From a virus (taxonomy: Duplodnaviria; Heunggongvirae; Uroviricota; Caudoviricetes): 56,412 nt of DNA. The notes under the pieces are model-generated. The model made no database searches. It was not told where the DNA came from and saw only the letters and a program-made list of their open reading frames with translations. Shown here piece by piece: positions 18,539 through 38,303 of this stretch. The stretch lies in IMG/VR virus record IMGVR_UViG_2718218136_000004; one strand, given 5' to 3'. A program made the position numbers and the translations under genes. Each line of letters begins with the position of its first letter. Within the stretch, counting starts at the first letter, position 1.

Positions 18539-19021
18539 ATGTCAGGACCTCCGAAAACCCCGCCACGCCTGCATTTGATTCGAGGTAACCCCTCAAAGCG
18601 CCCCGTTAAAGACCACAAAAAAACCGCTAAAAAGGATGAAAAAGGTCTTCCTAAAATTCCGCAGCATTTAGGGGCTCAGGGGAAGTACTGGTTCAGGCGA
18701 ATGGCGGAAGAGCTGAATGCGGAAGGGATCATTTCTCAGCTTGATGCGCGTGCGCTCGAGCTGCTGGTGGAAGCCTACACCGAATATCGGCATCACTGCG
18801 AAACACTCGATGTTGAGGGGTATACCTACCGCACGGAAACGCAGAGCGGTGATGTACTGATTAAGGCGCACCCCGCGGCGGCAATGAAAGCGGATGCCTG
18901 GAAGCGGATCCGGGCAATGCTTGCAGAGTTTGGTATGTCACCGGCAAGCCGGGCTAAAGTAAATATCGCCGGACCGGATGATGTTGATCCGCTGGCGGAG
19001 CTTTTAAAAGCGAGAGACTGA
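18539..19021 (+). CDS. Terminase small subunit (P27 family)
   Basis: 160-aa ORF immediately upstream of and overlapping terL; similar architecture to the insert-encoded TerS. Confidence 0.75.
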   Translation: MSGPPKTPPRLHLIRGNPSKRPVKDHKKTAKKDEKGLPKIPQHLGAQGKYWFRRMAEELNAEGIISQLDARALELLVEAYTEYRHHCETLDVEGYTYRTETQSGDVLIKAHPAAAMKADAWKRIRAMLAEFGMSPASRAKVNIAGPDDVDPLAELLKARD

Positions 19022-20048
19022 TGGCAAAAGTGGCTGACGGGATCCGCTACGCCGAACGTGTTGTTGCAGGAGAAATTGTTGCTGGCGAATTTGTCCGCCT
19101 GGCCTGCCAGCGTTTTCTTGATGATCTGAAGTACGGCGAAGAGCGGGGGATTTATTTCAGTGAACCCCGTGCGCAGCACATCCTGAATTTCTACAAATTT
19201 GTGCCTCATGTAAAAGGGGCGCTGGCAGGCCAGCCCATTGAGTTGATGGACTGGCATGTATTTATCCTCATTAATATTTTTGGTTTTGTCATTCCGCTGG
19301 TCAATGAAGAGACCGGGGAAGTTGTCATGCGCAGCGATGGCAGCGGACGTCCGGTGATGGTGCGCCGGTTCCGGACGGCGTACAACGAAGTCGCCCGTAA
19401 AAACGCAAAATCAACTCTGTCATCGGGTATCGGCCTGTATATGACGGGGGCAGATGGTGAAGGCGGAGCTGAGGTGTATTCAGCCGCAACCACGCGTGAC
19501 CAGGCCAGAATCGTGTTTGAAGACGCCAAAAATATGGTCAGAAAAGCCCGGTCGACACTCGGGCGGTTGTTTGATTTCAACAAGCTGGCGATTTACCAGG
19601 AGCAGAGCGCATCAAAATTTGAACCGCTTTCTTCGGATGCAAACAACCTGGATGGTCTGAACATCCACTGCGCCATTATTGATGAGCTGCATGCACATAA
19701 AACCCGTGACGTGTGGGACGTTCTGGAAACGGCAACCGGTGCCCGTCTGCAGTCCCTTTTATTTGGTATCACCACGGCAGGGTTTAACAAGGAAGGGATT
19801 TGTTACGAGCAGCGTGATTACGCCATCAAGGTATTGCGTGGCTATAACAGCGACGTGGAGGGCGCGGTAAAAGACGACTCCTACTTTGCGATTATTTACA
19901 CCCTCGATGAGGGAGATGATCCGTTTGATGAAACGGTCTGGCAGAAAGCGAATCCTGGCCTGGGCATCTGTAAACGCTGGGATGATCTGCGTCGTCTGGC
20001 GAAAAAAGCGAAAGAACAGGTCTCTGCGCGGGTGAATTTTTTTACCAA
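19021..20048 (+). CDS. Terminase large subunit, 5' portion (ATPase domain), interrupted by insertion at 20042-20048
   Basis: N-terminal 342 codons align with the insert-encoded TerL up to ...ARVNFFTK; ORF then continues in frame into insert sequence and the integrase gene. Confidence 0.85.
20042..20048. repeat. attL crossover core (TTACCAA)
   Basis: Identical 7-bp core at 35490-35496; flanking sequence partially conserved (TT[T/C]TTACCAA). Confidence 0.5.
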
Positions 20049-20178
20049 GAAAGTAACATCACGCCGTAACAACAGTGCGACCTGTCCTGATTTTTTTAGT
20101 AACCAAATGAAAGAAAAAGTTTTTTTTCTTGTTCGTCGTTTTTGTTTTTTCTGGAAGGTTCTGGCTGTTTTCATCATT

Positions 20179-20200
20179 TGTGTATTGCACTGTGTATTGC
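20179..20200. repeat. Tandem TGTGTATTGC repeats near attL, candidate integrase arm-type binding sites
   Basis: TGTGTATTGCACTGTGTATTGC just upstream of int; near-identical GTGTATTGCGCTGTGTATTGC near attR. Confidence 0.45.
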
Positions 20201-20220
20201 AAAAACGGGTTATAAATCAC

Positions 20221-21444
20221 ATGGCGCTAAACAAACTGAGCGATAAAAAACTTCGTTCCCTGCTTGGACGCAGGAGTGAGAGGCAGGAAACCATCGCTGA
20301 TGGTAACGGGCTTTCGGTACGGGTCAGTAAATACGGATGTGTTAGTTTTGTTTTCTTTTACAGACTGGCGGGAAGGGGAACCGCGCCCATCTGGCTGACA
20401 CTTGGAAAATATCCTGATCTGAGTCTCAAATCAGCGAGAGAGATGCGCGATCAGTGTCGAACCTGGCTTGCGGAGGGCAGAGATCCACGGATTCAGATAA
20501 AAATTGAACGGGAAGCCACCTTGCAACCTGTTACCGTTCGTGAGGCACTTGAATACTGGCTTGATAATTATGCAATGGATAAGCGTAGGGGAGCAGAACA
20601 TATCAGGCAGTGCTTTGGTAAACATATTTATCCGGTGATTGGTCATGTACCACTTAGTGATTGCTCTATATCTATGTGGATCAAGTGTTTTGACAAAATA
20701 AAAAAAGTAGCACCTGTACAGGCCGGAGCTTTGTTGCGTATATCAAAACAGGCGCTTAAATTTTGTAGGGTAAGAAAATACGCGATTAGTCATGAAATTG
20801 ATGATCTTGAGGTCTGTGATGTGGGAAAAAAGTCTGCGCGAAGAAGCAGGGTTTTAACAGATGATGAAATCAGAGATTTATGGCGAAGTATTAATACTGA
20901 TTATGACAATCACGAATTATCATATGAAAACCGAATTATTTTACGTTTCCTGGTAGTTTTTGGTTGTCGACTGTCAGAAGTATTACTGTCGTCCTGGGTA
21001 GAGTGGGATTTTGATAAGAAATTATGGCGCGTTCCCGCTGATCATAGCAAAAATGGCAGGGAAATAATCAGACCGATTCCTGATGGCATGTTTAACTGGT
21101 TAGTTACGTTAAAAAAAATAACAGGTAACAAAGAAAATGTGATTGGGTTTGATATGCGTCAGTGTACGGCAAGCGTAACTATCGGTAAGACATGGAAAAG
21201 GATGAAACACTCGGAGAAATGGACGGCGCATGATATGCGAAGAGTGTTTGCCACAAAACTAAGTGATCATGGTTTTGAACATAATGTGGTTGAACAGTTG
21301 CTTGGGCACACATTAGGCGGTGTTGCCGGGGTTTATAACAGAAGCCAGTATATGGACAGAAAAAAAGAAGCTATGAACTGGTGGTACGACTATCTGAATA
21401 AGCAAATTAGTGGTGACAGTAATGATTCAAATAGTTACGCGTGA
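20221..21444 (+). CDS. int: P4-like tyrosine integrase of the satellite
   Basis: MALNKLSDKKLRSLLG... N-terminus typical of P4-family integrases; catalytic context FGCRLSEV, HDMRRVFAT, GVYNRSQY. Confidence 0.85.
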   Translation: MALNKLSDKKLRSLLGRRSERQETIADGNGLSVRVSKYGCVSFVFFYRLAGRGTAPIWLTLGKYPDLSLKSAREMRDQCRTWLAEGRDPRIQIKIEREATLQPVTVREALEYWLDNYAMDKRRGAEHIRQCFGKHIYPVIGHVPLSDCSISMWIKCFDKIKKVAPVQAGALLRISKQALKFCRVRKYAISHEIDDLEVCDVGKKSARRSRVLTDDEIRDLWRSINTDYDNHELSYENRIILRFLVVFGCRLSEVLLSSWVEWDFDKKLWRVPADHSKNGREIIRPIPDGMFNWLVTLKKITGNKENVIGFDMRQCTASVTIGKTWKRMKHSEKWTAHDMRRVFATKLSDHGFEHNVVEQLLGHTLGGVAGVYNRSQYMDRKKEAMNWWYDYLNKQISGDSNDSNSYA

Positions 21445-21475
21445 AGAACTTGAAAATGATGAAACAATCGACAGG

Positions 21476-21643
21476 ATGATTAAGGAAGATGAATGTGCAT
21501 GGTTAACCGCTCTTGGCAGGAGACACAGATCGTTACTTGAAAAGGAAGGAAAATTTCCACGAAAAATATGTATTGGCCCACAAACAAAAGTCTGGCGCTT
21601 ATCTGAGGTGCTGGAATGGGTAAAAGGTGAATGGAAACCCTGA
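21476..21643 (+). CDS. AlpA-family transcriptional regulator
   Basis: WLTALGRRHRSLLEKEGKFPRKICIGPQTKVWRLSEVLEWV fits the AlpA HTH pattern; start uncertain (alternative ATGs at 21410 and 21422). Confidence 0.55.
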   Translation: MIKEDECAWLTALGRRHRSLLEKEGKFPRKICIGPQTKVWRLSEVLEWVKGEWKP

Positions 21644-21666
21644 GTTAAATTAAATGAGATATAATC

Positions 21667-21690
21667 AACCCGTCTTTTGGCGGGTTTTTT
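21667..21690 (+). terminator. Intrinsic terminator after first alpA-like gene
   Basis: ACCCGTC-TTTT-GGCGGGT followed by T-run. Confidence 0.5.
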
Positions 21691-21706
21691 TATAGGTGAT
21701 ATTTTT

Positions 21707-21985
21707 ATGCAAAAATTTATTTATCCTACACCCGAAGAACGCATTCAGATTCTGAAAGATCATGGCGAACCGTATGATCGCCGTATACGCGAACATGAGT
21801 GTGCCAATCGTACCGGGCTTTCAAGAAGCAGACGTTGGGTACTTGAACAGGAGGGAGCATTTCCTGCTCGTGCTCATTTAGGGAAAGTGTCTGTTTCCTG
21901 GTTGCTCTCTGATGTGCTCTGGTGGGTTATGCATCCGCCAGGAGTAAAGGAAGTAAACAGCCCATACAAAAACGCCAATAAGTAA
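21707..21985 (+). CDS. Second AlpA-like regulator
   Basis: CANRTGLSRSRRWVLEQEGAFPARAHLGKVSVSWLLSDVLWWV fits the AlpA-like HTH pattern. Confidence 0.5.
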   Translation: MQKFIYPTPEERIQILKDHGEPYDRRIREHECANRTGLSRSRRWVLEQEGAFPARAHLGKVSVSWLLSDVLWWVMHPPGVKEVNSPYKNANK

Positions 21986-21995
21986 TTACCGACAA

Positions 21996-22024
21996 CCCCG
22001 CACCACGCAATGCGGGGTTTTTTG
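21996..22024 (+). terminator. Intrinsic terminator after second alpA-like gene
   Basis: CCCCGCA-CCACGCAA-TGCGGGG followed by TTTTTTT. Confidence 0.55.
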
Positions 22025-22042
22025 TATGTGAGGTAAAAAGCA

Positions 22043-22621
22043 ATGAATAAAAATATTGCCGTGACGGGCAAGGGTGACGCACGTCATGTGAAAAAATTCT
22101 GTGATATTCGTGATCTGGTCGTTCTGCGCTTTGATGGCGTGGATGTTCGTGTGGTGTATCTAAACGGCGATCCGTGGTTTGTTGCAAAGGATGTTTGTGC
22201 TGCGCTGGAACTGACCAATTCGCGTACGGCGTTGCAGATGCTTGATGATGACGAAAAGGGAGTAAATTTAACTTACACCCCCGGAGGAAATCAGAATATG
22301 AGCATTATCTCCGAGTCAGGTTTCTACAAACTAATAGCCCGCAGCCGCAAAGCAACGACGCCTGGCACATTTGCTCATCGTTTCAGTAACTGGGTATTCA
22401 GAAATGTGATACCGGGTATCAGAAAAACGGGGGCTTATGGTATCCCGTGGGGCGCATTACAGGATTTTTCCCGCCGCAAAGAGCAATACCAGATAAGTGC
22501 CAGCGAGAAGGGGAGGGAGCTACAGGCATGTAAGCGCAAAAAGCGTGAGCTGGAGGAAGAAGAAAAAAGGCTGATACGTGAATACCAGCCTGAGTTTTAC
22601 TTTGGTGAGCGTATTCAGTAA
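22043..22621 (+). CDS. Bro-N domain protein (antirepressor-like)
   Basis: N-terminal VRVVYLNGDPWFVAKDVCAALELTNSRTALQML matches the Bro-N/KilA-N antirepressor domain. Confidence 0.65.
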   Translation: MNKNIAVTGKGDARHVKKFCDIRDLVVLRFDGVDVRVVYLNGDPWFVAKDVCAALELTNSRTALQMLDDDEKGVNLTYTPGGNQNMSIISESGFYKLIARSRKATTPGTFAHRFSNWVFRNVIPGIRKTGAYGIPWGALQDFSRRKEQYQISASEKGRELQACKRKKRELEEEEKRLIREYQPEFYFGERIQ

Positions 22622-23064
22622 CCACACGCGGTGTTGATTATACGGTACATCGTGTTGACCGGGAAGCTACCCACCAGCAAGGCAAAATCTTCTGCTAAAA
22701 AATGACATATGACCAGTCGTCCGGAAAGCATGAAATTTTACAAAAATGGAAAATGAAGATTTTTATTGTGCTGGTGGGTAAAAACAAAAAGCGCCCCGTT
22801 ACCGGAGCGCCCTTGCGAACAATTAACCTACTGCGCAAAAAATGAATCTGTGCGGGGGGATTATATCAACCGTGGTCGAAATGACCATAGTTGCAGGATA
22901 ACAGGCAAAACAAAGGCCACCCGCTACGGTGGCCCCTTGACACAAGCTACACGTTATCCCCAACGCATGAGCATAACCAACAATGCCACATTTACGGCTG
23001 GTGGGCAAATCCTGAGCTGTTCTGTAATTACAGAAACTACGGCATTGTCGCGGTTAGGTTATGA

Positions 23065-23217
23065 TCAACTTTTTTTCAACTCTATATCGCAAGCACGCCG
23101 TAATATATCGCCTTCATTGCTTCCGCAAAGATTCTTTTTCTCGAAGCATGATTTTAAGATAAAGGCGGCGACAATTAGAACAATCGCACAGAGTGCACAA
23201 TTTTTAAGTTTTGGCAT
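23065..23217 (-). CDS. Small hydrophobic peptide (50 aa)
   Basis: [28 protein letters not shown]... with AGGAG RBS 7 nt upstream; downstream of an RHH-like gene on the same strand. Confidence 0.4.
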
Positions 23218-23271
23218 CTTTTACTCCTATGGTTGCCGCCGTGATTCCTCACACCACGGCGCTGGTGATGG

Positions 23272-23451
23272 TTATTCCTGCTCTTTGGCCTTGCGACGCT
23301 GGCGGTATTCAACTTCTCGCTTTAATGCTGCTGTTACAAACTGCCCTGTACTTTCACCAGGCATTTTTACCGCCTCAACATTGTTCATAACTTCATGCGG
23401 AACCCTTGCCGCAACTGTTTGTGATTTTGCGTTTACTGCTTTTGTTGCCAT
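23272..23451 (-). CDS. Ribbon-helix-helix-like small DNA-binding protein
   Basis: 59 aa; ...[17 protein letters not shown]...[16 protein letters not shown] fits an RHH strand-helix-helix pattern; adjacent to palindromic operators. Confidence 0.45.
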
Positions 23452-23501
23452 GTTGTGTACCCCTTACAAAAAACAAATGCAGTATGCAGGAAAAAAAATA
23501 A

Positions 23502-23553
23502 GTGTTCAACACTTGACGTGTTTAACACTAGGGCTTAAATTGGTGTTCAACAC
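23502..23553. promoter_or_regulatory. Satellite operator region: three GTGTT(C/T)AACAC palindromes between divergent operons
   Basis: Palindromes at 23502-23512, 23518-23528, 23543-23553. Confidence 0.45.
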
Positions 23554-23650
23554 CTTGCTGATGCAAGGTGCAGAAACGACGAAACCCGGCAGTGCGCTAA
23601 CACTAACCGGGCTTCTAACCACCAACGATAGAAAGCGTATCGAGGTAGCT

Positions 23651-24190
23651 ATGCTAAATCATACCACACACCCGCAAGGGCGGGACTCGCACAACCTGAA
23701 TAAACCCGATGTAAAAAACCTGTTGATCGCCACTGCCAGCCAGGGCTATGATTTACCCGCACCAGCAAAATCTGGTGCCGGGATTGGCGTCCTGGTATTT
23801 AACGAAGCGCACAACACGCGCCCTGCGTGTTTTTTTGTGCCGGATAGTCACACCTTATCAATGGTGGGCTGTATGGGGGCGGAGCAATCCGCGCCGGGTT
23901 CTTCGTTAACCGGTTACGCCAACCCTGTACAGTCCACCGCCAGCGAAATTGGCGTTTCCTGCGGTGGGTTTATTAAACCTAACGAAGAGGCTGCCAACAT
24001 GGCTACTATCCCTACCCTTGTACATTCCCAAACTGCCTTTATCTGGCGCTTTATCATCTTTGGCGCGTCAGAGTCCCAAATCATCCACGTCACCGCCTGG
24101 ACGGAACGCGAAGCGCGTAACCATTGCCCGTCAGGTTGTGTCGCTGTATTCGCCGCCCGTATTCGTCAGGGGGTGCGCCATGTGCAATAA
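23651..24190 (+). CDS. Hypothetical protein (first gene of satellite rightward operon)
   Basis: GAGG RBS before ATG at 23651; stop overlaps next start; amino-acid composition not strongly protein-like. Confidence 0.3.
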
Positions 24191-24425
24191 CACCCGTCCG
24201 GACGCAGCCGCCGAAGCCATCAAAACGCTGATGCACGCGCTGATTGATATTTCATGCACGGTAGCAACCGCAGAAAAACACATTACCAGAGAGACGGAAT
24301 ATACAGGGGCGATAATCCCGCATTCGCTGGCTTACGCACAGCTTACCGCTGATATGGCGCTGAATGAGGCTAAAGCCATCCTGATTGCTGATTGTGAAAA
24401 TGGCGGGGGCGATTATGCGAAATAA
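24180..24425 (+). CDS. Hypothetical protein
   Basis: 81-aa [28 protein letters not shown]..., start overlaps upstream stop. Confidence 0.4.
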
Positions 24426-24633
24426 ACATGATATTGAAGACCTGGCATTTGAAGCCCTGCACTCTGCGAAAAAAATCAGGGAAGTCGTCAATATGTGGAT
24501 GAACAGCCTTAGCACCGATAAATCCGATAGCAGAGAAGAAATTCTTATTTCTTTGTTGTTAGACCTGGCAAATACACAGGTTTCTCTGACATCTGATATT
24601 GAGCTCGCCGCTAAAAAGCTGCCTCTGGAGTAA
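24412..24633 (+). CDS. Hypothetical protein
   Basis: 73-aa [28 protein letters not shown]..., start overlaps upstream stop. Confidence 0.4.
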   Translation: MMRNKHDIEDLAFEALHSAKKIREVVNMWMNSLSTDKSDSREEILISLLLDLANTQVSLTSDIELAAKKLPLE

Positions 24634-24639
24634 AAAAAC

Positions 24640-24954
24640 ATGAAAAAGAAAAATTCTGGCTTTACTGCCAGCGGTCACGCTCGGCCTGAAATCCGCCCCG
24701 GTGATATTTTCCGGGATAAATACGGCAGCACGATAACGATTAAAACCGTCGATGATTTTCGTGTGACCTATATCCGCGAAGGTTATGCGCATCCCTGCGT
24801 GTCGTCACATATGCGCTTTGACAGGGAGTTCACCCTGGTAAGCAAAGCACCACCAGCAGAATTAAGCGACATCGACAGAATCATGCGCGTTACAGGAATG
24901 GAACGCATTAAGGCAGTACGTGAAATTATTCGTGAACGGGGAAAGGCAAAATGA
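24640..24954 (+). CDS. Hypothetical protein
   Basis: 104-aa ORF overlapping the start of the replication gene. Confidence 0.45.
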   Translation: MKKKNSGFTASGHARPEIRPGDIFRDKYGSTITIKTVDDFRVTYIREGYAHPCVSSHMRFDREFTLVSKAPPAELSDIDRIMRVTGMERIKAVREIIRERGKAK

Positions 24955-27077
24955 AGCGCGCACCAAACTTAAAGCACCAGCCAGCCGACAAAATGACGGA
25001 GGTTATCATCTTTGCGGGTAGTGATGCGTGGAGCCATGCGAAAGAGTGGCAGGAATGGGCAGGTAAGCATATTGCCGCCGACAATGTGCCGCCTGTCGTT
25101 CTGTCAGATGAACACCTGAAAGATATTACCGGTTATCAAATTATTGATGATAGCCGTCAGTGTGTGCGTATTTACCGCGCAGGGCACATCACTGAACGTA
25201 GCCTCACACAGATCGTCACGTTGCTGGCTGTGGCTGGCGTGAAGACCGTATACGAATACGCGGGGATAACTGACACCAGCCCGGCGGATTTATCCGACCA
25301 GTTGCCTCGCCTCAAAGACGAATACGAGCGCGGGGAAAGTCTGGTGTTGCCCTTAAAGAAAAAAATCACAGAAAGCCCGGGTGATGATGAATTAAAGCCC
25401 CGCGTTGAAAGCCGCGCCGATGGTGTTTTCTGGGTAACGCCAAAAGTGGATAAGCAGTCAGGCGAAATTATCCGGCCTGAAACGTGGTTATGCTCCCCGC
25501 TTGAGCTACTGGGAACGGGGACAATCGGCAAAGAGCATTACCGCGTGATGCGCTGGAAAAAGCCAGCAAACCATGAAGTCATCACGATGGCGGTTCCGTG
25601 CGGTGGCATTGGCGACCGTGACGGCTGGCGGCTGCTGAAAGACCACGGACTGAACGTGACAACCAACGGTAAATACAGGGCTATCCTGGCTGACTGGATG
25701 CAGTTAAGCGGAAACCATGAGGAATGGCAGTTAAGCACAACAACGGGCTGGCATTTTGGCGCGTACATCATGCCGGACGGTTCGGTCATTGGTGATTGCG
25801 AAAAGCCAGTCCTGTTTACCGGAAAAACGGCTGCCGTTAATGGTTATTCCGTGGCAGGAACGGCGGAGGGCTGGCGCGACAGTGTGGCGCGACTGGCTGG
25901 TGGTAATCCGTCCATGATGCTGGGTGTGGCGGTATCGCTATCCGCACCATTAATCGGGCTGGTGGGTGCTGACGGCTTCGGGGTACATCTTTTCGAACAG
26001 TCATCGGCAGGTAAGACCACAACGCAGAACATCGCATCAAGTTTATGGGGAGAGCCGGACGCGCAGCGGCTGACCTGGTACGGCACAGCGTTAGGTATCG
26101 CCAACGAAGCAGAGGCACACAATGACGGGCTTTTACCCCTGGATGAAATAGGCCAGGCCGGAAACGCGCGGGAGGTGTCCACGTCAGCCTATACGCTGTT
26201 TAACGGTTCGGGGAAATTACAGGGGGCGAAGGACGGCGGCAACAGGGAGATCAAACACTGGCGCACGGTGGCAATCAGCACCGGAGAAATGGACGTTGAG
26301 ACATTCCTCAAAACGGAGGGGATAAAAGTCAAAGTGGGGCAGCTTGTCCGCCTGCTTAACGTTCCGATGGAAAAAGCCACGCAATTTCACGAATACAGCA
26401 CCGGAAAGGCGCACGCAGACGCGTTAAAGGATGCCTGGACAGAAAATCACGGGGCGGCGGGTCGTGAGTGGGTTAAATGGCTGGCAGAACACCAGCAGGA
26501 GGCAAAGGACACGGTAAGGACATGCCGTGAGCGGTGGCGCAACCTGATACCGGAGAGCTACGGCGAACAGGTTCACCGTGTGGGGGAGCGATTTGCCATA
26601 CTGGAGGCCGCGCTTGTGCTTTCAGGTCATGTTACTGGCTGGGATGAGCAGGAATGCCGCGATGCCATACAGCATAATTTTAATGCCTGGGTGAAGGAGT
26701 TCGGCACGGGTAACAGGGAATTTAAACAGATGGTTGAACAGGCAGAAGCTTTTTTAGCGTCGTTCGGATTCAGCAGATACCTTCCGTGGCCCAATACCGA
26801 CGAGCGTGATTTACCGATTAAAGAACTTGCCGGATACAGAAAGGGGAGTATCAGAAACGAAGATGACGAGTTCCGTTTTTACACGTTCCCGCATGTATTT
26901 GAGGGTGAGATAGCACAGGGATTTAATCCGTCTCACTTTGCCCGCGCGTTGAGTGCTGCCGGAATGCTGGAAGCGGGTAACGATCGCCGTTACAAGAAAA
27001 AGGCGCTCGGCAAAATTGGGGGGAAGCAGCATGTTTTTTACGTGCTGATGTTCCAGCCAGAAAGCGAAGAAGATTAA
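24951..27077 (+). CDS. Satellite replication initiator, primase/helicase-like P-loop NTPase (DUF927-like)
   Basis: 708-aa ORF with Walker A-like SSAGKTTTQN; immediately upstream of an iteron/AT-rich origin and an SSB gene. Confidence 0.6.
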   Translation: MKRAPNLKHQPADKMTEVIIFAGSDAWSHAKEWQEWAGKHIAADNVPPVVLSDEHLKDITGYQIIDDSRQCVRIYRAGHITERSLTQIVTLLAVAGVKTVYEYAGITDTSPADLSDQLPRLKDEYERGESLVLPLKKKITESPGDDELKPRVESRADGVFWVTPKVDKQSGEIIRPETWLCSPLELLGTGTIGKEHYRVMRWKKPANHEVITMAVPCGGIGDRDGWRLLKDHGLNVTTNGKYRAILADWMQLSGNHEEWQLSTTTGWHFGAYIMPDGSVIGDCEKPVLFTGKTAAVNGYSVAGTAEGWRDSVARLAGGNPSMMLGVAVSLSAPLIGLVGADGFGVHLFEQSSAGKTTTQNIASSLWGEPDAQRLTWYGTALGIANEAEAHNDGLLPLDEIGQAGNAREVSTSAYTLFNGSGKLQGAKDGGNREIKHWRTVAISTGEMDVETFLKTEGIKVKVGQLVRLLNVPMEKATQFHEYSTGKAHADALKDAWTENHGAAGREWVKWLAEHQQEAKDTVRTCRERWRNLIPESYGEQVHRVGERFAILEAALVLSGHVTGWDEQECRDAIQHNFNAWVKEFGTGNREFKQMVEQAEAFLASFGFSRYLPWPNTDERDLPIKELAGYRKGSIRNEDDEFRFYTFPHVFEGEIAQGFNPSHFARALSAAGMLEAGNDRRYKKKALGKIGGKQHVFYVLMFQPESEED

Positions 27078-27099
27078 TTTTTTCTCGCGTGTAGGGTGA

Positions 27100-27255: not shown

Positions 27256-27313
27256 TCACAGTAAGGGTGTAAACAAGCGTAACTATCAACGTTAAAACCG
27301 GAGAACAGACAGC

Positions 27314-27739: not shown

Positions 27740-27754
27740 GCAGTGAGGTACAGC

Positions 27755-28051: not shown

Positions 28052-28083
28052 CTGTTTCTGGTATCGTGGCAGCAGGAGGAAAC

Positions 28084-28332
28084 ATGCCAGTGACATTTGA
28101 AGAAGTCCAGCAACATAAAAAGCTTCATGATTTTGATGATCTGGAAACCACGACAGTAAAAAAATATCGCCGGCTGCTTTCTTCCGATGCGTTATTTTTT
28201 GTGGATCATCATGATTTTCTGCGTAGCTCACTGACCGGGGAAATTTTCGCAACCAACCGTGAGCAGGTGGAAGCGATGATCGAATATCTGTGGAAAATAA
28301 GACGCAGAATGCGGGATCCAGTGAAACAATAA
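28084..28332 (+). CDS. Hypothetical small protein
   Basis: 82-aa ORF with AGGAGG RBS. Confidence 0.45.
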   Translation: MPVTFEEVQQHKKLHDFDDLETTTVKKYRRLLSSDALFFVDHHDFLRSSLTGEIFATNREQVEAMIEYLWKIRRRMRDPVKQ

Positions 28333-28605
28333 AGCGATAAAGGCCTGGATTTTTTTCAGGTCTTTTTTCAGGTTTTGTAAATTATTTGTTCGTGGTTGTT
28401 CCAGGTTGTTCGGTGATTCTGGCTGATGTTTACATACTGATTTTTATGTATATGTTGGCGTGTGGCACTCAGACGTGAGCCGCCACAATGCCGCCTGACC
28501 CCCTGCGCGATGCCGGGTTGATCTGCGAGATGCCGAGAGTGTCGGGCGGCGCTCCCTCCGTGTTGGTTTCACGTCCTGAATCTTAACCAATACGAGAAAA
28601 CCTTC

Positions 28606-29775
28606 ATGAAGAAATTAATCGAACTCCGCCAGCAAAAAACCGCCCTGAAAAACCAGATGCGATCCCTGCTGGAAAAAGCCGACAGTGAAAACCGCAGCCT
28701 GAACGATGACGAGGGCAAACAGTTTGATGAACTGCGTGCAAAAGCCGATTCCCTCGACACAGAAATTTCCCGCCTCGAGTCTGTGGCTGATGAAGAACGC
28801 AGCAAGCCAGGAACGGGCATCCAGAAATTATCATCTGATGAATTGCGTAACTATATCGTAACCGGAGATGTGCGATCACTGTCCACCAGCACTGACAGCG
28901 GCAGGGATGGCGGATATACCGTAATTCCTGAGCTTGATCGCGAAGTCATGCGCCAGCTACAGGATGACAGTGTTATGCGCGTGATCGCGACCGTGAAGAC
29001 CGCAAAATCAAATGAGTTTCAGAAACTGGTTTCCACTGGCGGCGCAACTGTAGGAAGAGGCACAGAAGGCAGCGCGCGCAGCGAAACCAACACCCCGAAA
29101 ATTGAACGCGTAACCATCAAGCTGAATCCGATCTACGCCTACCCGAAAACCACGCAGGAAATCCTGGATTTTTCAGAGGTGGATATTCTGGGCTGGTTAT
29201 CCTCCGAAATTGCCGACACGTTCGCCAGCACCGAAGAGGATGATTTTGTTAATGGCGACGGTAACGGCAAGCCGAAAGGATTCATGGCTTACACCCGTGC
29301 GGCGACCAGTGACAAAACCCGCGCTTTTGGCACCATTGAAAAAATGGTAGCGGCAAGTGGAACCGCCATTACAGCGGACGAACTGATCGACATTCTCTAC
29401 AAGCTGAAAGCGAAATACCGCAAAAATGCCGTCTGGGTGATGAACTCGGGCACGGCAGGGACACTACAGAAGCTGAAAAATGAGAACGGCGATTATATCT
29501 GGCGCGACAGCCTTAAAGAAGGTGCGCCGGATATGTTGCTTGGTCGTCCTGTTTACTGCCTGGAGTCCATGCCGGACATCGGCGCAGGAAAAGCACCGCT
29601 AGCGGTTGGCGATTTCAGTCGTGGTTATTTCATCGTTGATCATGTAACAGGGATTCGCACCCGACCGGACAACATTACTGAACCCGGATTCTACAAGGTC
29701 CACACGGATAAATATCTGGGCGGTGGTGTGGTGGATTCAAACGCCATCAAAATTCTGGAAATGAAAGCTGGCTAG
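28606..29775 (+). CDS. Satellite major capsid protein (HK97 fold) with N-terminal coiled-coil delta domain
   Basis: 389 aa; C-terminal region co-linear with the prophage capsid protein (38304-39509). Confidence 0.8.
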   Translation: MKKLIELRQQKTALKNQMRSLLEKADSENRSLNDDEGKQFDELRAKADSLDTEISRLESVADEERSKPGTGIQKLSSDELRNYIVTGDVRSLSTSTDSGRDGGYTVIPELDREVMRQLQDDSVMRVIATVKTAKSNEFQKLVSTGGATVGRGTEGSARSETNTPKIERVTIKLNPIYAYPKTTQEILDFSEVDILGWLSSEIADTFASTEEDDFVNGDGNGKPKGFMAYTRAATSDKTRAFGTIEKMVAASGTAITADELIDILYKLKAKYRKNAVWVMNSGTAGTLQKLKNENGDYIWRDSLKEGAPDMLLGRPVYCLESMPDIGAGKAPLAVGDFSRGYFIVDHVTGIRTRPDNITEPGFYKVHTDKYLGGGVVDSNAIKILEMKAG

Positions 29776-29787
29776 TCATGAGTAAGG

Positions 29788-29810
29788 AGGAGGCTGCGGC
29801 CTCCTTTTTC
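29788..29810 (+). terminator. Stem-loop with T-run after satellite capsid gene
   Basis: AGGAGGC-TGCG-GCCTCCT followed by TTTTT. Confidence 0.4.
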
Positions 29811-29829
29811 AGCTTTATGGAGTACACCG

Positions 29830-30390
29830 ATGAAAAACACCGATTTTGAAATCCGCACATCTGAACTGACCGCCAGCGATAAAAAACTGGTGGGTTATGC
29901 CGTTCGCTGGAACAGCCTTTCAGAAATTATCTGGGACGAATTCCGCGAACAGTTCACGCCGGGGGCTTTTGCTGACTATCTGGCGGCGGGTAATGATGTG
30001 CGCTGCCTGTATGAGCATGACTATACCCAACTGCTGGGGCGCACCAAATCCGGCACTCTGGTACTGACTGAGGATAACACCGGGTTACGTTTTGAGCTGA
30101 CACCGCCGGATACCCAGCTTGGAAAAGATGTGCTTACGCTGGTGGAGCGTGGCGACATTACAGGAATGAGCTTTGGTTTTCGCGCATTATGCGAGGAGTG
30201 GAGTATCGCGCAAAAACCGTATTTGCGTACCGTAACTGCCGCAGAACTCCGTGAAATCACGATAACGTCGATGCCTGCTTATCCCGAATCCGGCGTGGAG
30301 ATTGCCCACCGTTCGTTGTTTGCACAGCACCCTGAATTACGCCCGGCAGGAAATAATCGTCATCGCTGGGCTGAACTGGCGGGGTTGTGA
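29830..30390 (+). CDS. Satellite prohead protease (HK97 family)
   Basis: 186-aa ORF similar in N-terminus to the prophage protease; between capsid and portal genes. Confidence 0.75.
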   Translation: MKNTDFEIRTSELTASDKKLVGYAVRWNSLSEIIWDEFREQFTPGAFADYLAAGNDVRCLYEHDYTQLLGRTKSGTLVLTEDNTGLRFELTPPDTQLGKDVLTLVERGDITGMSFGFRALCEEWSIAQKPYLRTVTAAELREITITSMPAYPESGVEIAHRSLFAQHPELRPAGNNRHRWAELAGL

Positions 30391-30391
30391 T

Positions 30392-31615
30392 ATGTGGTGG
30401 CCTTTTAGTCGTAAAAAAAGCGAGCTGCGTAACCTGTCCATTGATGATTTTCTGGCGCTGTCCGGCGTACCGAATACCGGAGCCGGAGAATATGTTTCTG
30501 CCGGGACGGCTGAATCATTGCCTGCTGTGATGAACGCGGTTTCTGTCATCGCTGAGGCGGTGGCCACGATGCCGTGTTATCTGTATCTGGTACGTAATGA
30601 CAAGGGCAGGGAGGCGCGGGAATGGTTGGACAGTCACCCGGTCGATATTCTGCTGAATGAGCAGCCTAATTCGTGCCAGACACCTTACCAGTTTAAACGC
30701 ACAATGATGCGTCACTGCCTGCTGAACGGTAACGCCTATGCGGTTATTGAGTGGGGGCGGGACGGTCAGCCAAAATCACTTCATCCTTATGCGCCGGGGT
30801 GTGTTGTACCGGAACGCACAGGCGCACACAAATACCGCTATACCATCACCGAACCCTATACAGGAACGGTGCGCACGTATTTACAGGAAGAAGTTCTGCA
30901 TCTCCGCTATGCCTCGGATGATGGCTTTCTGGGGCGCTCCCCTGTCACGATTTGCCGTGAGGCACTTGGGCTTGGCCTTGCTCAACAGCGCCACGGAGCC
31001 AGCATTATGAAAGATGGCATGATGGCGGCAGGGATTATCACGTCAGGCGAATGGCTGGACGGCGTGAAAGGTAAACAGGCATTGGATGCTCTGGAACGCT
31101 ACAAGGGGGCGAAAAATGCCGGAAAAACGCCAATCCTTGAAGGGGGCATGGATTACAAGCAACTGGGAATGAGTAACCAGGATGCGGAATGGCTGGCCTC
31201 CCGTCGCTTCTCCATTGAAGACATTGCCCGTATGTTCAACGTATCGCCTATTTTTCTGCAGGAATACAGCAATAGCACCTACAGCAATTTCAGCGAGGCA
31301 AGCCGCGCGTTTCTGACCATGACAATGCGCCCATGGCTGGCGAACTTCGAACAGCAAATCAAGGCTGCTTTGCTGGTGGCTTCTCCCGTACCTGGTACCC
31401 GTTATCTGGTTGAGTTTGATTCAGCCGATTTACTGCGCGCCACACCTACCGAACGTTACGCCACGTATGAGAAAGGAATTAAGAACGGGATCATGAATCC
31501 GAACGAAGCCCGTGAGCGTGAGGGAATGCCGCCGCGTGAAGGTGGCGACGAGTTCAGCCAGGCATGGAAGCAGGAAGTGACAATCAGCAAGAACAGTAAG
31601 GGCGGTGACGAATGA
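30392..31615 (+). CDS. Satellite portal protein (HK97 family)
   Basis: ATG at 30392 after protease stop; segments homologous to the prophage portal (36420-37661). Confidence 0.8.
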   Translation: MWWPFSRKKSELRNLSIDDFLALSGVPNTGAGEYVSAGTAESLPAVMNAVSVIAEAVATMPCYLYLVRNDKGREAREWLDSHPVDILLNEQPNSCQTPYQFKRTMMRHCLLNGNAYAVIEWGRDGQPKSLHPYAPGCVVPERTGAHKYRYTITEPYTGTVRTYLQEEVLHLRYASDDGFLGRSPVTICREALGLGLAQQRHGASIMKDGMMAAGIITSGEWLDGVKGKQALDALERYKGAKNAGKTPILEGGMDYKQLGMSNQDAEWLASRRFSIEDIARMFNVSPIFLQEYSNSTYSNFSEASRAFLTMTMRPWLANFEQQIKAALLVASPVPGTRYLVEFDSADLLRATPTERYATYEKGIKNGIMNPNEAREREGMPPREGGDEFSQAWKQEVTISKNSKGGDE

Positions 31616-31950
31616 TAGCCGGAAATATGCGGGACCGGGTGACGATTATGACATTTACCACACAGCGCCTGCCGTCAGGTGCGATCCAGCAGATATGGAC
31701 GGAAGGGGAAACCATCTGGGCAGAGGTCAAGGGGATCAGCGGACGGGAATTACTGACCGCAGGCGCAGAAACCGCACCTGCAACGATTCGGGTATGGGTT
31801 CGCTATCGTGGCGACATATCCGCCGCCAGTCGCCTGAAAGTGCTTACCGGCGCTTTTGCCGGGAGCACGCTTAATATCATCGGGATCCCCTTACCTGATG
31901 CGAAAAGAACCCGGCTGGAAATTCTGGCAAAGGTGGGTACAGAAAAATGA
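31612..31950 (+). CDS. Satellite head-tail adaptor / head closure protein
   Basis: 112 aa, about 60% identical by eye to the prophage homologue at 40074-40412 (shared TIWAEVKGISGRE, RLEIL). Confidence 0.7.
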   Translation: MIAGNMRDRVTIMTFTTQRLPSGAIQQIWTEGETIWAEVKGISGRELLTAGAETAPATIRVWVRYRGDISAASRLKVLTGAFAGSTLNIIGIPLPDAKRTRLEILAKVGTEK

Positions 31951-32243
31951 CAGCAGAAAAAATAACCCTGGAAGAGGCCAAACTTCACTGCCGCATAGAT
32001 GGTAACACAGAAGACACACTGATTCAGGCATACATAAGCGCGGCGCTGGAGGTATGCCAGAAGCATATTGGCAGGCGTTTTGATGACGGCCTGGAATTTA
32101 CCCCTGCAATAAAAATTGGTTGCCTGATGTACATCTCGCAACTGTACGAGTACCGGACAACGCTTGGCGATACCGATACAAAAGAAATTCCCCTGACGAT
32201 TTCCGCGCTCTGGTCGGTTTATCGTGATGTGGGGGTGTACTGA
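31947..32243 (+). CDS. Satellite head-tail connector (gp6-like)
   Basis: 98-aa ORF; related to the prophage protein at 39760-40065 (shared CRID...N...E pattern). Confidence 0.6.
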   Translation: MTAEKITLEEAKLHCRIDGNTEDTLIQAYISAALEVCQKHIGRRFDDGLEFTPAIKIGCLMYISQLYEYRTTLGDTDTKEIPLTISALWSVYRDVGVY

Positions 32244-32683
32244 TGCCATGGCAACCATTAAGGCGATGCACTGAGCCGGGCTGTAATAAGCGCGTGAAGT
32301 CCGGCAAGTGTGAAGAGCACAGGCGGGCTGCATGGCGTGCAGAGGATGCCAGACGGGGACACCGCCGCGCACGTGGGTATTCCCGACTGTGGGACAAATA
32401 CCGCGCCATGTACCTGAAAAAAAATCCGTTATGCGTGCGTTGTCTGGCTAAGGGTATTTATACGCCAGCTCTTGTGGTGGATCACATCATTCCCATCAAT
32501 GGCGGCGGTGATGTTCTCTTCTGGCCTGAGTGGAACCACCAGGCATTGTGCCAGACGTGCCACAACCGTAAGACGACACGGGAAGATCCAGCCACGAAAG
32601 CGAACCGTAAGGCGGGCATGTATCGCGAGCAGGAAGAACGGGCGGCACATCGTAACGACTGGATGTATGGCGATGATGACTGA
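32243..32683 (+). CDS. Satellite HNH endonuclease
   Basis: Cys-rich N-terminus and VVDHIIPINGGGD...ALCQTCHNRKT HNH motif; upstream of terS. Confidence 0.8.
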   Translation: MPWQPLRRCTEPGCNKRVKSGKCEEHRRAAWRAEDARRGHRRARGYSRLWDKYRAMYLKKNPLCVRCLAKGIYTPALVVDHIIPINGGGDVLFWPEWNHQALCQTCHNRKTTREDPATKANRKAGMYREQEERAAHRNDWMYGDDD

Positions 32684-32971
32684 ACAGGAGCAAAACAGGC
32701 TGATACGTGGACTGATAAGGCAGCGTGACTTATGGAAGACACAGGAGACAGGGCACAAAGCCAACAGGACAGAGCGCACAGAACGCACCACAGCGAAGCG
32801 ATTAACCGACCGTGACCGCGAGGTCATGGAATGTTTTCGCAATCGCTGGTGAGGCCGTCAGAGGGGGTGGGGGAGGTTTTCAGGACGAAACCGCCCCTGC
32901 CGGACACCGACCGCCTCCTCAAATTTTTGTGCACGGGAATTTTTTTGAAAATAATTGGGCGAAAAAAGAAC

Positions 32972-33328
32972 ATGGCAAGACCACCAAAAGCCCCCGCTTA
33001 CCTGGATGAAATCGCGGTCAGGCAGTGGAAGGAAAAATCGCGCCAGCTTTCCGGGCGGGAAGACCTTACCCCCGCCGACTGGAGCAATCTGGAACTGTAT
33101 TGTGTTAACTACTCCATATACCGCAAAGCCGTCGAAGACCTTGCGACGCGCGGGTTCAGCATTGTTAACAGTCAGGGCAGCGAGAGCAGAAACCCCGCCC
33201 TGAGCGCAAAGGCTGACGCGGAAAGAATAATGATCAAAATGGCTTCTTTGCTGGGTTTTGACCCGGTAAGCCGCCGCAGAAATCCACCGGAAACAGAGGA
33301 AGAGGACGAGCTTGACCGCCTGGCATGA
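32972..33328 (+). CDS. Satellite terminase small subunit (P27 family)
   Basis: Start at MARPPKAPAYLDE... (ATG 32972); upstream of and overlapping terL. Confidence 0.65.
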   Translation: MARPPKAPAYLDEIAVRQWKEKSRQLSGREDLTPADWSNLELYCVNYSIYRKAVEDLATRGFSIVNSQGSESRNPALSAKADAERIMIKMASLLGFDPVSRRRNPPETEEEDELDRLA

Positions 33329-34973
33329 GTACGCAGAAGGCGTAAAAAACGGCAAAATTACGGCCTGTAAACGACTGAAACAGGCCGTTAAACGGTATTT
33401 TTATGACCTTGAAAACCCCCTTTACACGTTCGAACCGGAGGTCGTGGAGCGGTTTATTGCCTTTTCCAGGGTGTGTCCGCACGTAAAAGGCGCAATGCGT
33501 GGTAGCCCCATTGAGCTGGAGCCGTGGCAGCAGTTCGCCTTTGCGTGCATCCTGGGCTTTAAGGTTAAGGCCACCGGACGGCGCAAATACACCAGCGCAT
33601 TCATTGAAGTACCGCGAAAAAATGCCAAATCCACGGTCGCCGCTATCCTGGCTAACTGGTTTCTGGTTATGGAAAACGGGCAGCAGGATATTTACACCGC
33701 CGCCGTGAGTCGTGATCAGGCGCGGATCGTGTTTGATGATGCGCGTCAGATGTGCCTTTTATCCCGACCGTTACGAAAGCGGGTAAATATTCAGGCACAC
33801 AAGGTGATACACCCGAAAACCAACAGCCTGTTAAAGCCACTGGCAGCAAAAGCGGCAACCATTGAAGGTACAAACCCGAGTCTTGCCATTGTAGATGAAT
33901 ATCACCTGCACCCTGACAACGGGGTTTATTCCGCGCTTGAACTGGGAATGGGGGCGCGTCCGGAGGGGTTATTATTTGCCATCACCACATCGGGGAGCAA
34001 CGTTGTTTCAGCCTGTAAACAACACTACGACTATTGCTGCCAGATACTGGATGGTGAAGAGGTGAACGAATCCATGTTCGTACTGATTTACGAGCTGGAT
34101 GATGAAAGCGAGGTTGACGATCCGGCGATGTGGATAAAGGCGAATCCCAATATCGATGTTTCCGTCGATCGTGAAAAACTGGCCTCAACCATCCAGAAAG
34201 CGCGGGGTATTCCGTCGCAGTGGGTGGAAATGCTCACCAAGCGATTCAATATCTGGTGTCAGGGGGCTACGCCGTGGATGGGTAACGGTGCATGGGCGGA
34301 GTGCGCCGGAACGTTCGCGGAGGCGGATTTATACGGGCAGGAGTGCTACGTGGGGCTGGACTTATCATCAACCAGCGATATTTCTAGCGTGTGCTATGCC
34401 TTTCCGGTCGGTAAAAAGATTATGCTGGTTTCCCGTCACTATCTGCCGGAATTTCAGTTACAGAACCCCGCCAATAAAAACCGCGCCATTTATCGCCAGT
34501 GGGTAAAGGCGGGCTGGATACGCACAACACCGGGTGACTGCATTGATTATGACCGTATCCGTGATGACATCATGGTGGATGCAGAGAATTTCAGTATCAG
34601 GCTGGTGGGCTTCGATACATGGAACGCCACTCACCTGAGAACACAGCTACAGGGGGCGGGATTTGAGGTGGAGCCGTTCCCGCAAACGTACCTTCGTTTC
34701 AGTCCGGCGGCGAAATCGTTCGAAGTTTTTGTTAACCGGAAGGTGATTGTGCATCGTGGTGATCCGGTGCTGGCCTGGTCAATGAGTAATGTTGTGATGC
34801 AGAGTGACGCGAACGCCAATATCAAGCCGAACAAGAAAAAATCATCCAACAAGATAGACCCGAGCGTTGCGGCGCTGATGGCGTTTGGCACATTCCAGGC
34901 AGAGCATGAGGAATTTGCATTCGATATGAGCGACAGCCACAAAGAGCGGCTTGCGACGTTTGATGGTGTGTAA
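33312..34973 (+). CDS. Satellite terminase large subunit, intact
   Basis: 553-aa ORF co-linear with both fragments of the split prophage terL (ATPase and nuclease domains). Confidence 0.85.
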   Translation: MTAWHEYAEGVKNGKITACKRLKQAVKRYFYDLENPLYTFEPEVVERFIAFSRVCPHVKGAMRGSPIELEPWQQFAFACILGFKVKATGRRKYTSAFIEVPRKNAKSTVAAILANWFLVMENGQQDIYTAAVSRDQARIVFDDARQMCLLSRPLRKRVNIQAHKVIHPKTNSLLKPLAAKAATIEGTNPSLAIVDEYHLHPDNGVYSALELGMGARPEGLLFAITTSGSNVVSACKQHYDYCCQILDGEEVNESMFVLIYELDDESEVDDPAMWIKANPNIDVSVDREKLASTIQKARGIPSQWVEMLTKRFNIWCQGATPWMGNGAWAECAGTFAEADLYGQECYVGLDLSSTSDISSVCYAFPVGKKIMLVSRHYLPEFQLQNPANKNRAIYRQWVKAGWIRTTPGDCIDYDRIRDDIMVDAENFSIRLVGFDTWNATHLRTQLQGAGFEVEPFPQTYLRFSPAAKSFEVFVNRKVIVHRGDPVLAWSMSNVVMQSDANANIKPNKKKSSNKIDPSVAALMAFGTFQAEHEEFAFDMSDSHKERLATFDGV

Positions 34974-35049
34974 CGGAATGGATGAGAGAGGACAATGCTC
35001 ATTTAATGGAATAAATTTTCAGTATTATCGGCACCCACTTTCAGGGATG

Positions 35050-35210
35050 TTTTTGCGGGTTATTTGAGTGGTGTTTGCGGGTTATTTTGAATGTCTTGCG
35101 GGTTACATTCTGGCTGATATTTAGATACGTTGTTTTTTAACGTATTGATATTAAAGAGTAAAAAATACTTAGCACGCGAAGATAACCCGCTAACCCGCAT
35201 AACCCGCACT
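35050..35210. repeat. Second iteron cluster near the satellite right end: TTGCGGGTTA(T/C) x3, AT-rich spacer with palindrome, ATAACCCGC x3
   Basis: Same motif and inverted architecture as the cluster at 27100-27255. Confidence 0.5.
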
Positions 35211-35393
35211 GTTTTGTATATATATACGAAAAATTGCATTCAGGGGGGGATCGAAATTTCTACTGCCTCTTATCTCTTTGAGTGCTCACCTCGTCAGATT
35301 GTTACACACAAGAAATAAAAAATGCTTCGCGATGGTAGGTCGAATCACTGTATCAAAAAACGGTGTGTATCAGCATTAAAACAATACAGATAC

Positions 35394-35414
35394 GTGTATT
35401 GCGCTGTGTATTGC
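35394..35414. repeat. GTGTATTGC repeats near attR, candidate integrase arm-type sites
   Basis: GTGTATTGCGCTGTGTATTGC; further GTGTAT / CAATAC copies at 35361-35390. Confidence 0.45.
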
Positions 35415-35489
35415 TCGATGATTTATAAAGACTGTTTTTTCATGTTAACTGATTGATATACAGGTGATTTTAAAAAACTTGAAATATTC

Positions 35490-35496
35490 TTACCAA
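35490..35496. repeat. attR crossover core (TTACCAA)
   Basis: Direct repeat of 20042-20048. Confidence 0.5.
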
Positions 35497-36226
35497 ACAC
35501 ATGAATGTGTGGGTAACAGCAGAGTCTGCCTGGATGGACATGATTAAGTGGGAGAAGTGCGAATACATTGCCCCGCGACATGAGCTGAAAACGTATCCCA
35601 TGTGGGTCGGCGTTGACCTTGCTCATAAGATTGATATCTGTGCGGCGGCAAAACTCTGGCGAACGGATAACGGGCATGTTCATGCCGATTTTAAATTCTG
35701 GCTCCCGGAAGGACGGCTGGAACGATGCTCGCGGCAGCAGGCAGAACTTTACCGGAAGTGGGCGGAGATGGATAAGCTGATTCTGACGGATGGTGATGTT
35801 ATCGATCATGCTCAGATAAAAAGTGACTTACTGGAATGGATTGGTGGTGAAAACCTCAGGGAACTGGGATTTGACCCGTGGAGCGCGATGCAGTTCAGCC
35901 TGGCACTGGCTGAAGAAGGGATACCGCTGGTGGAGGTTCCGCAGACGGTTCGCAATCTGTCAGAGGCCATGAAGGAAACGGAATCACTGGTCTATGCCGG
36001 ACGTTTCCATCACAGCAATCATCCGGTCATGAACTGGATGATGTCTAACGTTACGGTAAAACCGGACAAAAACGACAATATCTTCCCGAATAAATCCACG
36101 CTGGAAGCCAAAATCGACGGCCCTGTTGCGATGTTTACAGCAATGAGCCGGATGCTGGTCAATGGTGGTGAACCGGAGCCGGATCTGTCTGAACATCTGG
36201 TCAGCGTGGGCATCCGCTCGCTTTAA
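35490..36226 (+). CDS. Terminase large subunit, 3' portion (nuclease domain), continuation of the gene interrupted at 20048
   Basis: Translation ...[14 protein letters not shown]... is co-linear with the insert TerL segment ...TKRFNIWCQGATPW...; downstream motifs also conserved. Confidence 0.85.
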
Positions 36227-38289: not shown

Positions 38290-38303
38290 TCAGGAGAAAT
38301 ACG

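Follow-up and report, generated by a model that had tools for sequence, protein, structure and literature searches.

A satellite with a capsid-forming gene set in the terL gene of an Escherichia coli lambdoid prophage, an already catalogued helper-embedded PICI

Two described groups of phage-inducible chromosomal islands (PICIs) bear on the locus considered here, a 15,448-bp satellite inserted in the large terminase gene (terL) of a lambdoid prophage. The prophage lies in a stretch of 56,412 nucleotides, the virus record IMGVR_UViG_2718218136_000004, the whole of which we call the window; the prophage around the satellite, its presumed helper, is called the helper below. The helper-embedded PICIs (HE-PICIs) have been described by Tommasini, Mageeney and Williams (NAR Genom Bioinform 2023, PMC10111431), with 491 examples from 14 sites that lie within nine late genes cognate to those of lambda, including A (terL). 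In the capsid-forming PICIs (cf-PICIs) of Proteobacteria, genes for capsid, protease, portal and head connectors precede hnh-terS-terL, and tail genes are missing (Alqurainy et al. 2023). No paper found in the literature searched uses both terms.

For the HE-PICIs, experiments on 11capE, a member that occupies a capsid gene, have shown that the composite of satellite and helper excises and replicates, and that the satellite excises afterwards (PMC10111431). Its authors have proposed passive replication of the satellite, read-through of the late transcript into it, and a "regulated gene integrity" which serves the satellite (PMC10111431). In addition, they have reported that many of the helpers appear truncated, and that a doubled motif, tgTGTATTGCantgTGTATTGCa, located ~81 bp upstream and ~132 bp downstream of the attP centre, is unique to HE-PICIs (PMC10111431). 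In terL, the sites A:Terminase_1:132 and A:Terminase_1:245/246 have been described (PMC10111431). The second of them is one site in two spellings, written A:Terminase_1:245 in the main text and A_Terminase_1_246 in the supplement (PMC10111431).

The finding treated here is already known, as the terL-embedded satellite and this exact element were published in 2023 as a "helper-embedded PICI" (PMC10111431). Supplementary File 1 holds the entry Eco4041.15.A_Terminase_1_246, at CP016546.1/4486766-4502213 and with the att identity "ttaccaa", and the catalogue places it in the A_Terminase_1_246 group (PMC10111431). These coordinates correspond to 20046–35493 of the window, and the listed attL and attR strings are the junction sequences of the window. 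Since coordinates, core and att strings all match, the finding is catalogued down to the element itself, and the novelty of terL as a satellite attachment site, which the original prediction had implied, does not stand. According to the catalogue, the same terL site is occupied in prophages at the tRNA-Ser, potB and HutD loci, and also in E. albertii and Arsenophonus; the element keeps a size of 15–16 kb across dozens of copies, and its boundaries have been mapped by TIGER in draft and complete assemblies (PMC10111431).

The helper of the entry carries the name Eco4041.57.S, that is, 57 kb, which is about the 56.4 kb of the window; the helper of the original element likewise goes under a composite name, Eco567.61.icd. 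Eco4041.57.S appears to name the composite of satellite and helper, the helper alone being ~41 kb.

The split terL gene and its empty site

The window comes from Escherichia coli O177:H21 (NZ_CP016546.1, 4466721–4523132). The lambdoid prophage it contains is integrated next to a tRNA-Ser gene and is covered from the 3' end of its integrase gene (int) to a tail-fibre assembly gene. The features that define the insertion are listed below.

19021–20048, + strand: 5' fragment of the helper terL (aa 1–343), with the whole ATPase domain and the start of the nuclease domain; a RefSeq pseudogene "missing C-terminus"
20042–20048, + strand: attL core TTACCAA, as in the published att identity "ttaccaa"
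20179–20201, + strand: doubled HE-PICI attP motif, tgTGTATTGCacTGTGTATTGCa, starting 134 bp after the core centre
35393–35415, + strand: second copy of the doubled motif, ending 78 bp before the core centre
35490–35496, + strand: attR core TTACCAA, a 7-bp direct repeat with the attL core
35497–36226, + strand: 3' fragment of the helper terL (aa 344–585), with most of the nuclease domain; a RefSeq pseudogene missing its N-terminus

The terL frame that opens at 19021 reads as far as ...ARVNFFTK and meets unrelated sequence from 20049 on, and the same frame picks up at 35497 and ends at 36226. That is, the insert occupies 20049–35496 and measures 15,448 bp including one copy of TTACCAA. It interrupts terL at codons 342–344, 3' of the ATPase domain, and leaves an N-terminal fragment that lacks the nuclease domain beyond its start. 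When 19021–20048 and 35497–36226 are joined, a single open reading frame (ORF) of 585 aa is obtained, in which both domains are complete (TerL_ATPase 112–268, TerL_nuclease 283–563). The joined protein is identical at 585/585 positions to the TerL of the induced phage vB_EcoM-606R7 (ON470580.1), and 99.7% identical to that of phi467. The helper TerL also aligns colinearly across the junction with the insert's own TerL (FFTKHMNVW versus MLTKRFNIW), at 32% identity overall. The original prediction had described a helper terL split by a 15.45-kb insert into two parts which together form one continuous TerL and are colinear with the TerL of the insert, and all of this is borne out by the break at 20048/35497, the 7-bp repeat and the alignments. 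On the current profiles, the junction falls at about position 63 of TerL_nuclease, after an ATPase profile of 178 positions, which by our estimate is consistent with ~246 in the older combined Terminase_1 profile.

The prediction had also pointed to other genomes as the place where the same junction or the empty site might be met, and both are present there. The attL junction, used as a 501-nt probe, is covered in 36 of 5,426 complete genomes, whose sources are humans, poultry, cattle, pigs and water. In the insert-free genomes among the matches listed, the alignment of this probe ends at query base 149, i.e., window 20048, or at base 143 in three cases. The reconstructed empty site of 301 nt, which contains TTTTTTACCAAACACATG, recurs with 100% identity as uninterrupted terL in many complete E. 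coli genomes; as a probe it has matches in 935 genomes, and at least 80% of it is covered in 905. The same terL allele is therefore found both occupied (in the 36 genomes) and intact (in the 905).

Overall, the split terL cannot be explained by chance or by misassembly. The junctions indicate that the tyrosine integrase of the satellite recombined a 7-bp TTACCAA of attP with the same 7 bp in terL codons 342–344. The predicted attP junction is ...GAAATATTCTTACCAAGAAAGTAAC... and the restored attB is ...AATTTTTTTACCAAACACATG..., and if the element excised precisely at the 7-bp core, the helper would regain an intact TerL.

The arms of the element agree with the HE-PICI type. Among the five exact matches to TGTATTGC in the 56 kb, four form two tandem pairs, at 20181/20193 and 35395/35407. 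In the prototype 11capE (from NRG857c), the motifs lie at 669/681 with the core at 531, and at 11512 with the core at 11608, which gives the same offsets within ~2 bp. The satellite integrase (Int) is 50% identical to that of 11capE and 42% identical to that of the Sakai prophage Sp7, figures which come from pairwise comparison only. The element is inserted in, and disrupts, a prophage late gene, and its attP brings no replacement sequence, as is the case for HE-PICIs.

The satellite's own terL contains a near-core, TCACCAA, at 34234–34240, in codons homologous to those of the helper attB core, with both flanks different. It is one base off each of the catalogued core variants, TTACCAA and TCACGAA. 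Self-targeting of the satellite terL looks unlikely, and the same has been argued for 11capE by its authors (PMC10111431).

Gene content of the satellite and of its helper

All the major genes of the insert, int, alpA and the primase gene included, are on the + strand and co-oriented with terL and the helper late operon. They follow each other in four zones, i.e., Integration (Int and two AlpA proteins), Bro (Bro-N and isrK/C4), Replication (DUF927 primase, iterons and SSB) and Late (capsid to TerL).

20227–21444, + strand: tyrosine integrase, with Arm-DNA-bind_3 and Phage_integrase domains found by domain search
21422–21643, + strand: first AlpA-family regulator/excisionase, followed by a terminator-like hairpin at 21667–21686
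21707–21985, + strand: second AlpA-family protein, helix-turn-helix, followed by a terminator-like hairpin at 21994–22019
22043–22621, + strand: Bro-N/anti-repressor-like protein (Bro zone)
23759–23944, + strand: isrK (23759–23835) and C4 antisense RNA (23857–23944), a P4-type immunity RNA pair
24951–27077, + strand: DUF927 primase/helicase-type replication initiator, P4-alpha-like, 83% identical to the Sp7 primase
27107–27249: first iteron cluster, ATAACCCGC units, two inverted and then four direct (one with a mismatch); putative origin
27314–27739, + strand: SSB
27755–28051, + strand: PerC/Pch-family transcriptional activator, 60% identical to PchE of Sp7
28606–29775, + strand: major capsid protein, HK97 type
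29830–30390, + strand: prohead protease
30392–31615, + strand: portal
31612–31950, + strand: head closure protein Hc1, 63% identical to that of the helper
31947–32243, + strand: head-tail adaptor Ad1
32243–32683, + strand: HNH endonuclease, a packaging accessory
32972–33328, + strand: TerS, P27 family
33312–34973, + strand: TerL, intact, 553 aa, 93% identical to the TerL of Sp7 and 32% to that of the helper
35055–35207: second iteron cluster, ATAACCCGC units, three inverted and then three direct; near the right end

The eight head and packaging genes were assigned by PHROG and Pfam, and their order is capsid, protease, portal, connectors and hnh-terS-terL. No tail gene is annotated within 20049–35489, where the ORFs of the insert that remain without assignment are all shorter than 110 aa. 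Likewise, no lysis gene, CI/Cro-type repressor, Q or other lambdoid regulatory gene is among the annotations of the insert. Genes for Psu, Sid and Delta are not annotated in it either, that part being occupied by head genes (no dedicated Psu or Sid profiles were run). The int of the insert faces inward, unlike the outward-facing int of a temperate prophage. Together with a PICI backbone of integrase, AlpA-type regulator and primase/replication genes, and with a length of 15,448 bp that is within the ~10–18 kb class, the insert fits the cf-PICI layout. The domain assignments and gene order thus agree with the original prediction, which had seen a satellite with integrase, AlpA-like regulators, primase and iterons, SSB and a full head and packaging set without tail genes.

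As the cf-PICI reference we have compared Sakai prophage Sp7, which sits between roxA and phoQ and which we infer, from gene content and from the close kinship of Sakai and EDL933, to be the O157 counterpart of the prototype EcCIEDL933. At the DNA level, the insert is 78% identical to Sp7 over 6.4 kb (window 28603–34940). The late-module proteins are colinear between the two at 54–93% identity (TerL 93%, TerS 88%, HNH 84%, portal 82%), and all the core satellite genes are full length. With an Sp7-like late module and primase and an integrase of 42% identity, the element looks like the body of a cf-PICI joined to another integration module, and by gene content we consider it to be a capsid-forming PICI. 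Sp7 itself was considered as a terL insertion and ruled out, by its position between roxA and phoQ and by the intact terL of Sp6.

A 16.5-kb record, LR881103.1, deposited as "Escherichia phage vB_KppS-Ant, induced prophage", has a 76% match to the capsid-portal region of the satellite. To judge by its size and content, it may be a cf-PICI that was entered as a phage.

Outside the late module, the isrK and C4 matches (80 and 75 bits) lie inside a coding sequence (CDS) that RefSeq annotates as an incomplete "ash family" gene. This pseudogene is probably a P4-type immunity RNA locus, RNA-coding rather than decayed, and an Icd-like gene is annotated 3' of the pair. The two iteron clusters are ~8 kb apart, and in both of them the inverted copies come first and the direct copies after; the one at the right end matches the origin region of Sp7 (80% over 155 nt), not the right end of Sp7. 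P4 has a bipartite ori/crr, and the two separated clusters recall this layout. As to the PerC/Pch-family gene, Pch regulators control the virulence genes of the locus of enterocyte effacement in enterohaemorrhagic and enteropathogenic E. coli.

The helper genes on the two sides of the insert are as follows.

18040–19021, + strand: helper HNH (18040–18390) and TerS (18539–19021), directly upstream in the late operon
36420–56412, + strand: helper portal, protease, capsid, connectors and a full lambda-like tail module, downstream of the insert

The structural region of the helper shows 99.2% identity over 12 kb to vB_EcoM-606R7, which is virion-derived, and the helper is therefore of an active phage type. 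Between satellite and helper, the paralogues are distant, with identities of 32% for TerL, 27% for TerS, 32% for portal, 37% for capsid and 42% for HNH. The head-closure pair (31612–31950 versus 40074–40412) is by far the closest, at 63% identity against 27–42% for the others. Their genes also give the sole DNA match between the two elements, 78 nt at 79% (31698–31775 versus 40160–40237); beyond it, no cos or other sequence common to satellite and helper, as reported for 11capE, was found. Head and tail meet at the closure and adaptor proteins, and the closure identity would therefore fit a satellite head adapted to the tails of this helper.

The helper prophage also carries a DicF RNA (4403–4454), a hok/sok module (11003–11178), three tRNA genes (Ile, Thr and Gly) between Q and holin (14690–14996) and, at its right end, an IS009 RNA match (56174–56372).

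The proposed cycle and its alternatives

Based on the above analyses, the element is very probably an HE-PICI of the A:Terminase_1:246 site group (Eco4041.15.A_Terminase_1_246), a cf-PICI by gene content, with a cycle of excision and packaging that can be proposed as follows. Before excision, the helper would have no TerL nuclease domain and would be unable to package, and transcription would have to read through 15.4 kb, or await excision, to reach its portal, capsid and tail genes. Upon SOS induction, the Q-antiterminated late transcript of the helper would cross HNH, terS and the truncated terL into the satellite (after Tommasini et al.). This transcript would override the hairpins 3' of both alpA genes, and int, alpA and the head and packaging genes of the satellite would be expressed. 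Int and AlpA would then excise the satellite, which would make the helper terL intact again, and the satellite would replicate from its iteron origin with its own primase and SSB. Finally, its own HNH, TerS and TerL would package it into its own small capsids, with tails taken from the helper.

Several points weigh against this proposal. For the terL group, we infer excision, activation by read-through, capsid formation and use of helper tails alike, the excision experiment being that on 11capE only, and small satellite-encoded capsids in need of helper tails are predicted only from homology to Sp7. Apart from the 78 nt, satellite and helper have no DNA in common, and nothing shows cross-talk in packaging. 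The helper int (window 1–1026, - strand, beside tRNA-Ser) is flagged by RefSeq as frameshifted at its extreme 3' end. It keeps an ORF of 341 aa, ending ...GHKTEGQVLIYDRKVKV..., with a C-terminal Tyr region that looks intact, so that the damage is confined to the extreme C-terminus near the att site, but excision of the helper may fail in this strain. The satellite is absent from the collection of phage records, where its best match has 76% identity over 20% of its length (the capsid-portal region), and there is therefore no evidence that it reaches virions. Furthermore, the prototype cf-PICI is not induced by the resident prophages of EDL933 and requires specific helpers (Alqurainy et al. 2023), which is why it is plausible, not proven, that the surrounding prophage acts as the helper.

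Some of these points also suit the strongest rival, which accepts the site-specific entry of an HE-PICI into terL and supposes that satellite and prophage are now both immobile, a dead composite. The absence of the satellite from phage and virion records would agree with it, and so would the observation that many HE-PICI helpers look truncated (Tommasini et al., PMC10111431). Two decay marks can be claimed for it as well. The helper int is flagged as frameshifted, but its 341 aa include the Tyr region; the "ash family" CDS is flagged as incomplete, but it overlaps isrK/C4 and probably encodes RNA. On the other hand, none of the core satellite genes is shortened relative to its Sp7 equivalent, the two att cores and the two doubled motifs have remained intact, the late region of the helper has 99% identity to that of an active phage, and neither half of terL carries a mutation relative to a functional TerL. 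We thus regard a dead composite as unlikely, though not to be neglected.

A further question is raised by the reading frame at the left junction, where the following feature is decisive.

20120–20127, + strand: T8 run, whose length sets the terL frame, fused to int (in this copy) or stopped (in copies 1 nt shorter)

In this copy, the terL frame stays open through 178 nt of the attL arm into int, which gives an ORF of 807 aa (19021–21444), and RefSeq starts the integrase CDS at the junction, window 20032. In the copies that are 1 nt shorter, the terL frame ends at a TAA located 5 nt before the ATG of int. By our own count in a part of the published attL strings, 8 of 22 members have the fusion frame and 13 of 22 are 1 nt shorter. 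The stretch 3' of the T run is open in nearly all frames because it is A-poor, and in 11capE 135 nt separate the stop of the capsid frame from int. The catalogue treats the terL-int fusion as an annotation artefact (PMC10111431). A conserved TerL-Int fusion protein was likewise rejected by us, as far as that part of the strings goes: with a frame that hangs on the length of the poly-T, an A-poor open stretch and the stop in 11capE, the fusion is regarded as incidental.

The int start has no obvious Shine-Dalgarno sequence. As a low-probability possibility, both variants of the T run might deliver ribosomes from the dead terL fragment to the start of int, either as TerL(1–343)-linker-Int or through the TAA near the ATG. 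A broader proposal is that the terL-embedded HE-PICIs have a distinct, non-commensal cf-PICI lifestyle, in which the helper's packaging nuclease is removed in cis and the satellite is early in drawing on the tails that the same late transcript yields; the coupling of int to the truncated terL would come in addition. We consider this proposal unlikely.

It is very improbable that the insert is a decayed second prophage, or a remnant of a tandem or recombinant prophage, instead of a satellite. The eight phage-type head and packaging genes and the integrase would agree with such an origin, and Sakai Sp7 used to be classed as an "untypable" degraded prophage. Nevertheless, the insert has no tail, lysis, CI/Cro-type repressor or Q genes, while its AlpA genes, P4-type primase and isrK/C4 RNAs are satellite signatures. 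In addition, its int faces inward as in PICIs, its boundaries are clean at 7 bp, its size is constant at 15–16 kb in dozens of copies, and it is colinear with Sp7, taken as the counterpart of the experimentally validated EcCIEDL933. Finally, an assembly chimera at the junctions, in favour of which no evidence was found, is effectively refuted by the identical attL junction in 36 independent complete genomes, by the boundaries that TIGER mapped independently in draft and complete assemblies, and by a break exactly at the 7-bp repeat that restores the reading frame.

Comparison with known systems

With the concept published in 2023 and the locus catalogued, nothing here is new in kind. What the system illustrates is a satellite that parasitises another mobile element by sitting in its packaging gene, where satellite excision would be a checkpoint for helper packaging and the expression of satellite genes would be tied to the helper late transcript. 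The remaining points are that the terL-targeting HE-PICIs are cf-PICIs by gene content, and that a terL insertion necessarily costs the helper, at odds with the "no cost to the helper" description that comes from the chromosomal prototype cf-PICI. The terL group therefore offers a natural test of commensal versus parasitic cf-PICIs.

The HE-PICI group A:Terminase_1:246 contains the same element, with the co-orientation, the doubled attP motif and the four-zone layout in common and no structural difference, although the HE-PICI paper does not call the terL group capsid-forming (PMC10111431). Within the HE-PICIs, 11capE differs more: it is 11 kb long, has neither terS nor terL and is presumed to be packaged by its helper, unlike the terL-embedded element with its own terS and terL.

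With the cf-PICIs represented by EcCIEDL933/Sp7, the element shares the size class, the order of head and packaging genes, the lack of tail genes, the DUF927 primase, SSB and a PerC-like gene. The differences are in location and consequence. Sp7 is in the chromosome between roxA and phoQ, whereas the terL-embedded element is in a prophage gene and has an integrase only 42% identical. EcCIEDL933 has been reported to be costless to its helper (Alqurainy et al. 2023), whereas the terL-embedded element necessarily inactivates the helper terminase while it is integrated.

According to the published tree (PMC10111431), the integrase clade is related to that of P4. Besides this related integrase clade, the element has in common with P4 an alpha-like primase, a C4/isrK-type immunity RNA pair, an Icd-like gene and two separated iteron clusters. 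P4, however, resizes the capsid of its helper and integrates in tRNA-Leu, while the terL element encodes its own capsid and integrates in a phage gene.

Lastly, the elements of regulated gene integrity, such as skin in sigK of B. subtilis and phi10403S in comK of Listeria, likewise interrupt a gene without bringing a replacement sequence and restore it by a precise and timed excision (discussed in PMC10111431). In the present case, it is a gene of another mobile element that is interrupted, and the timing would presumably serve the satellite rather than the cell.

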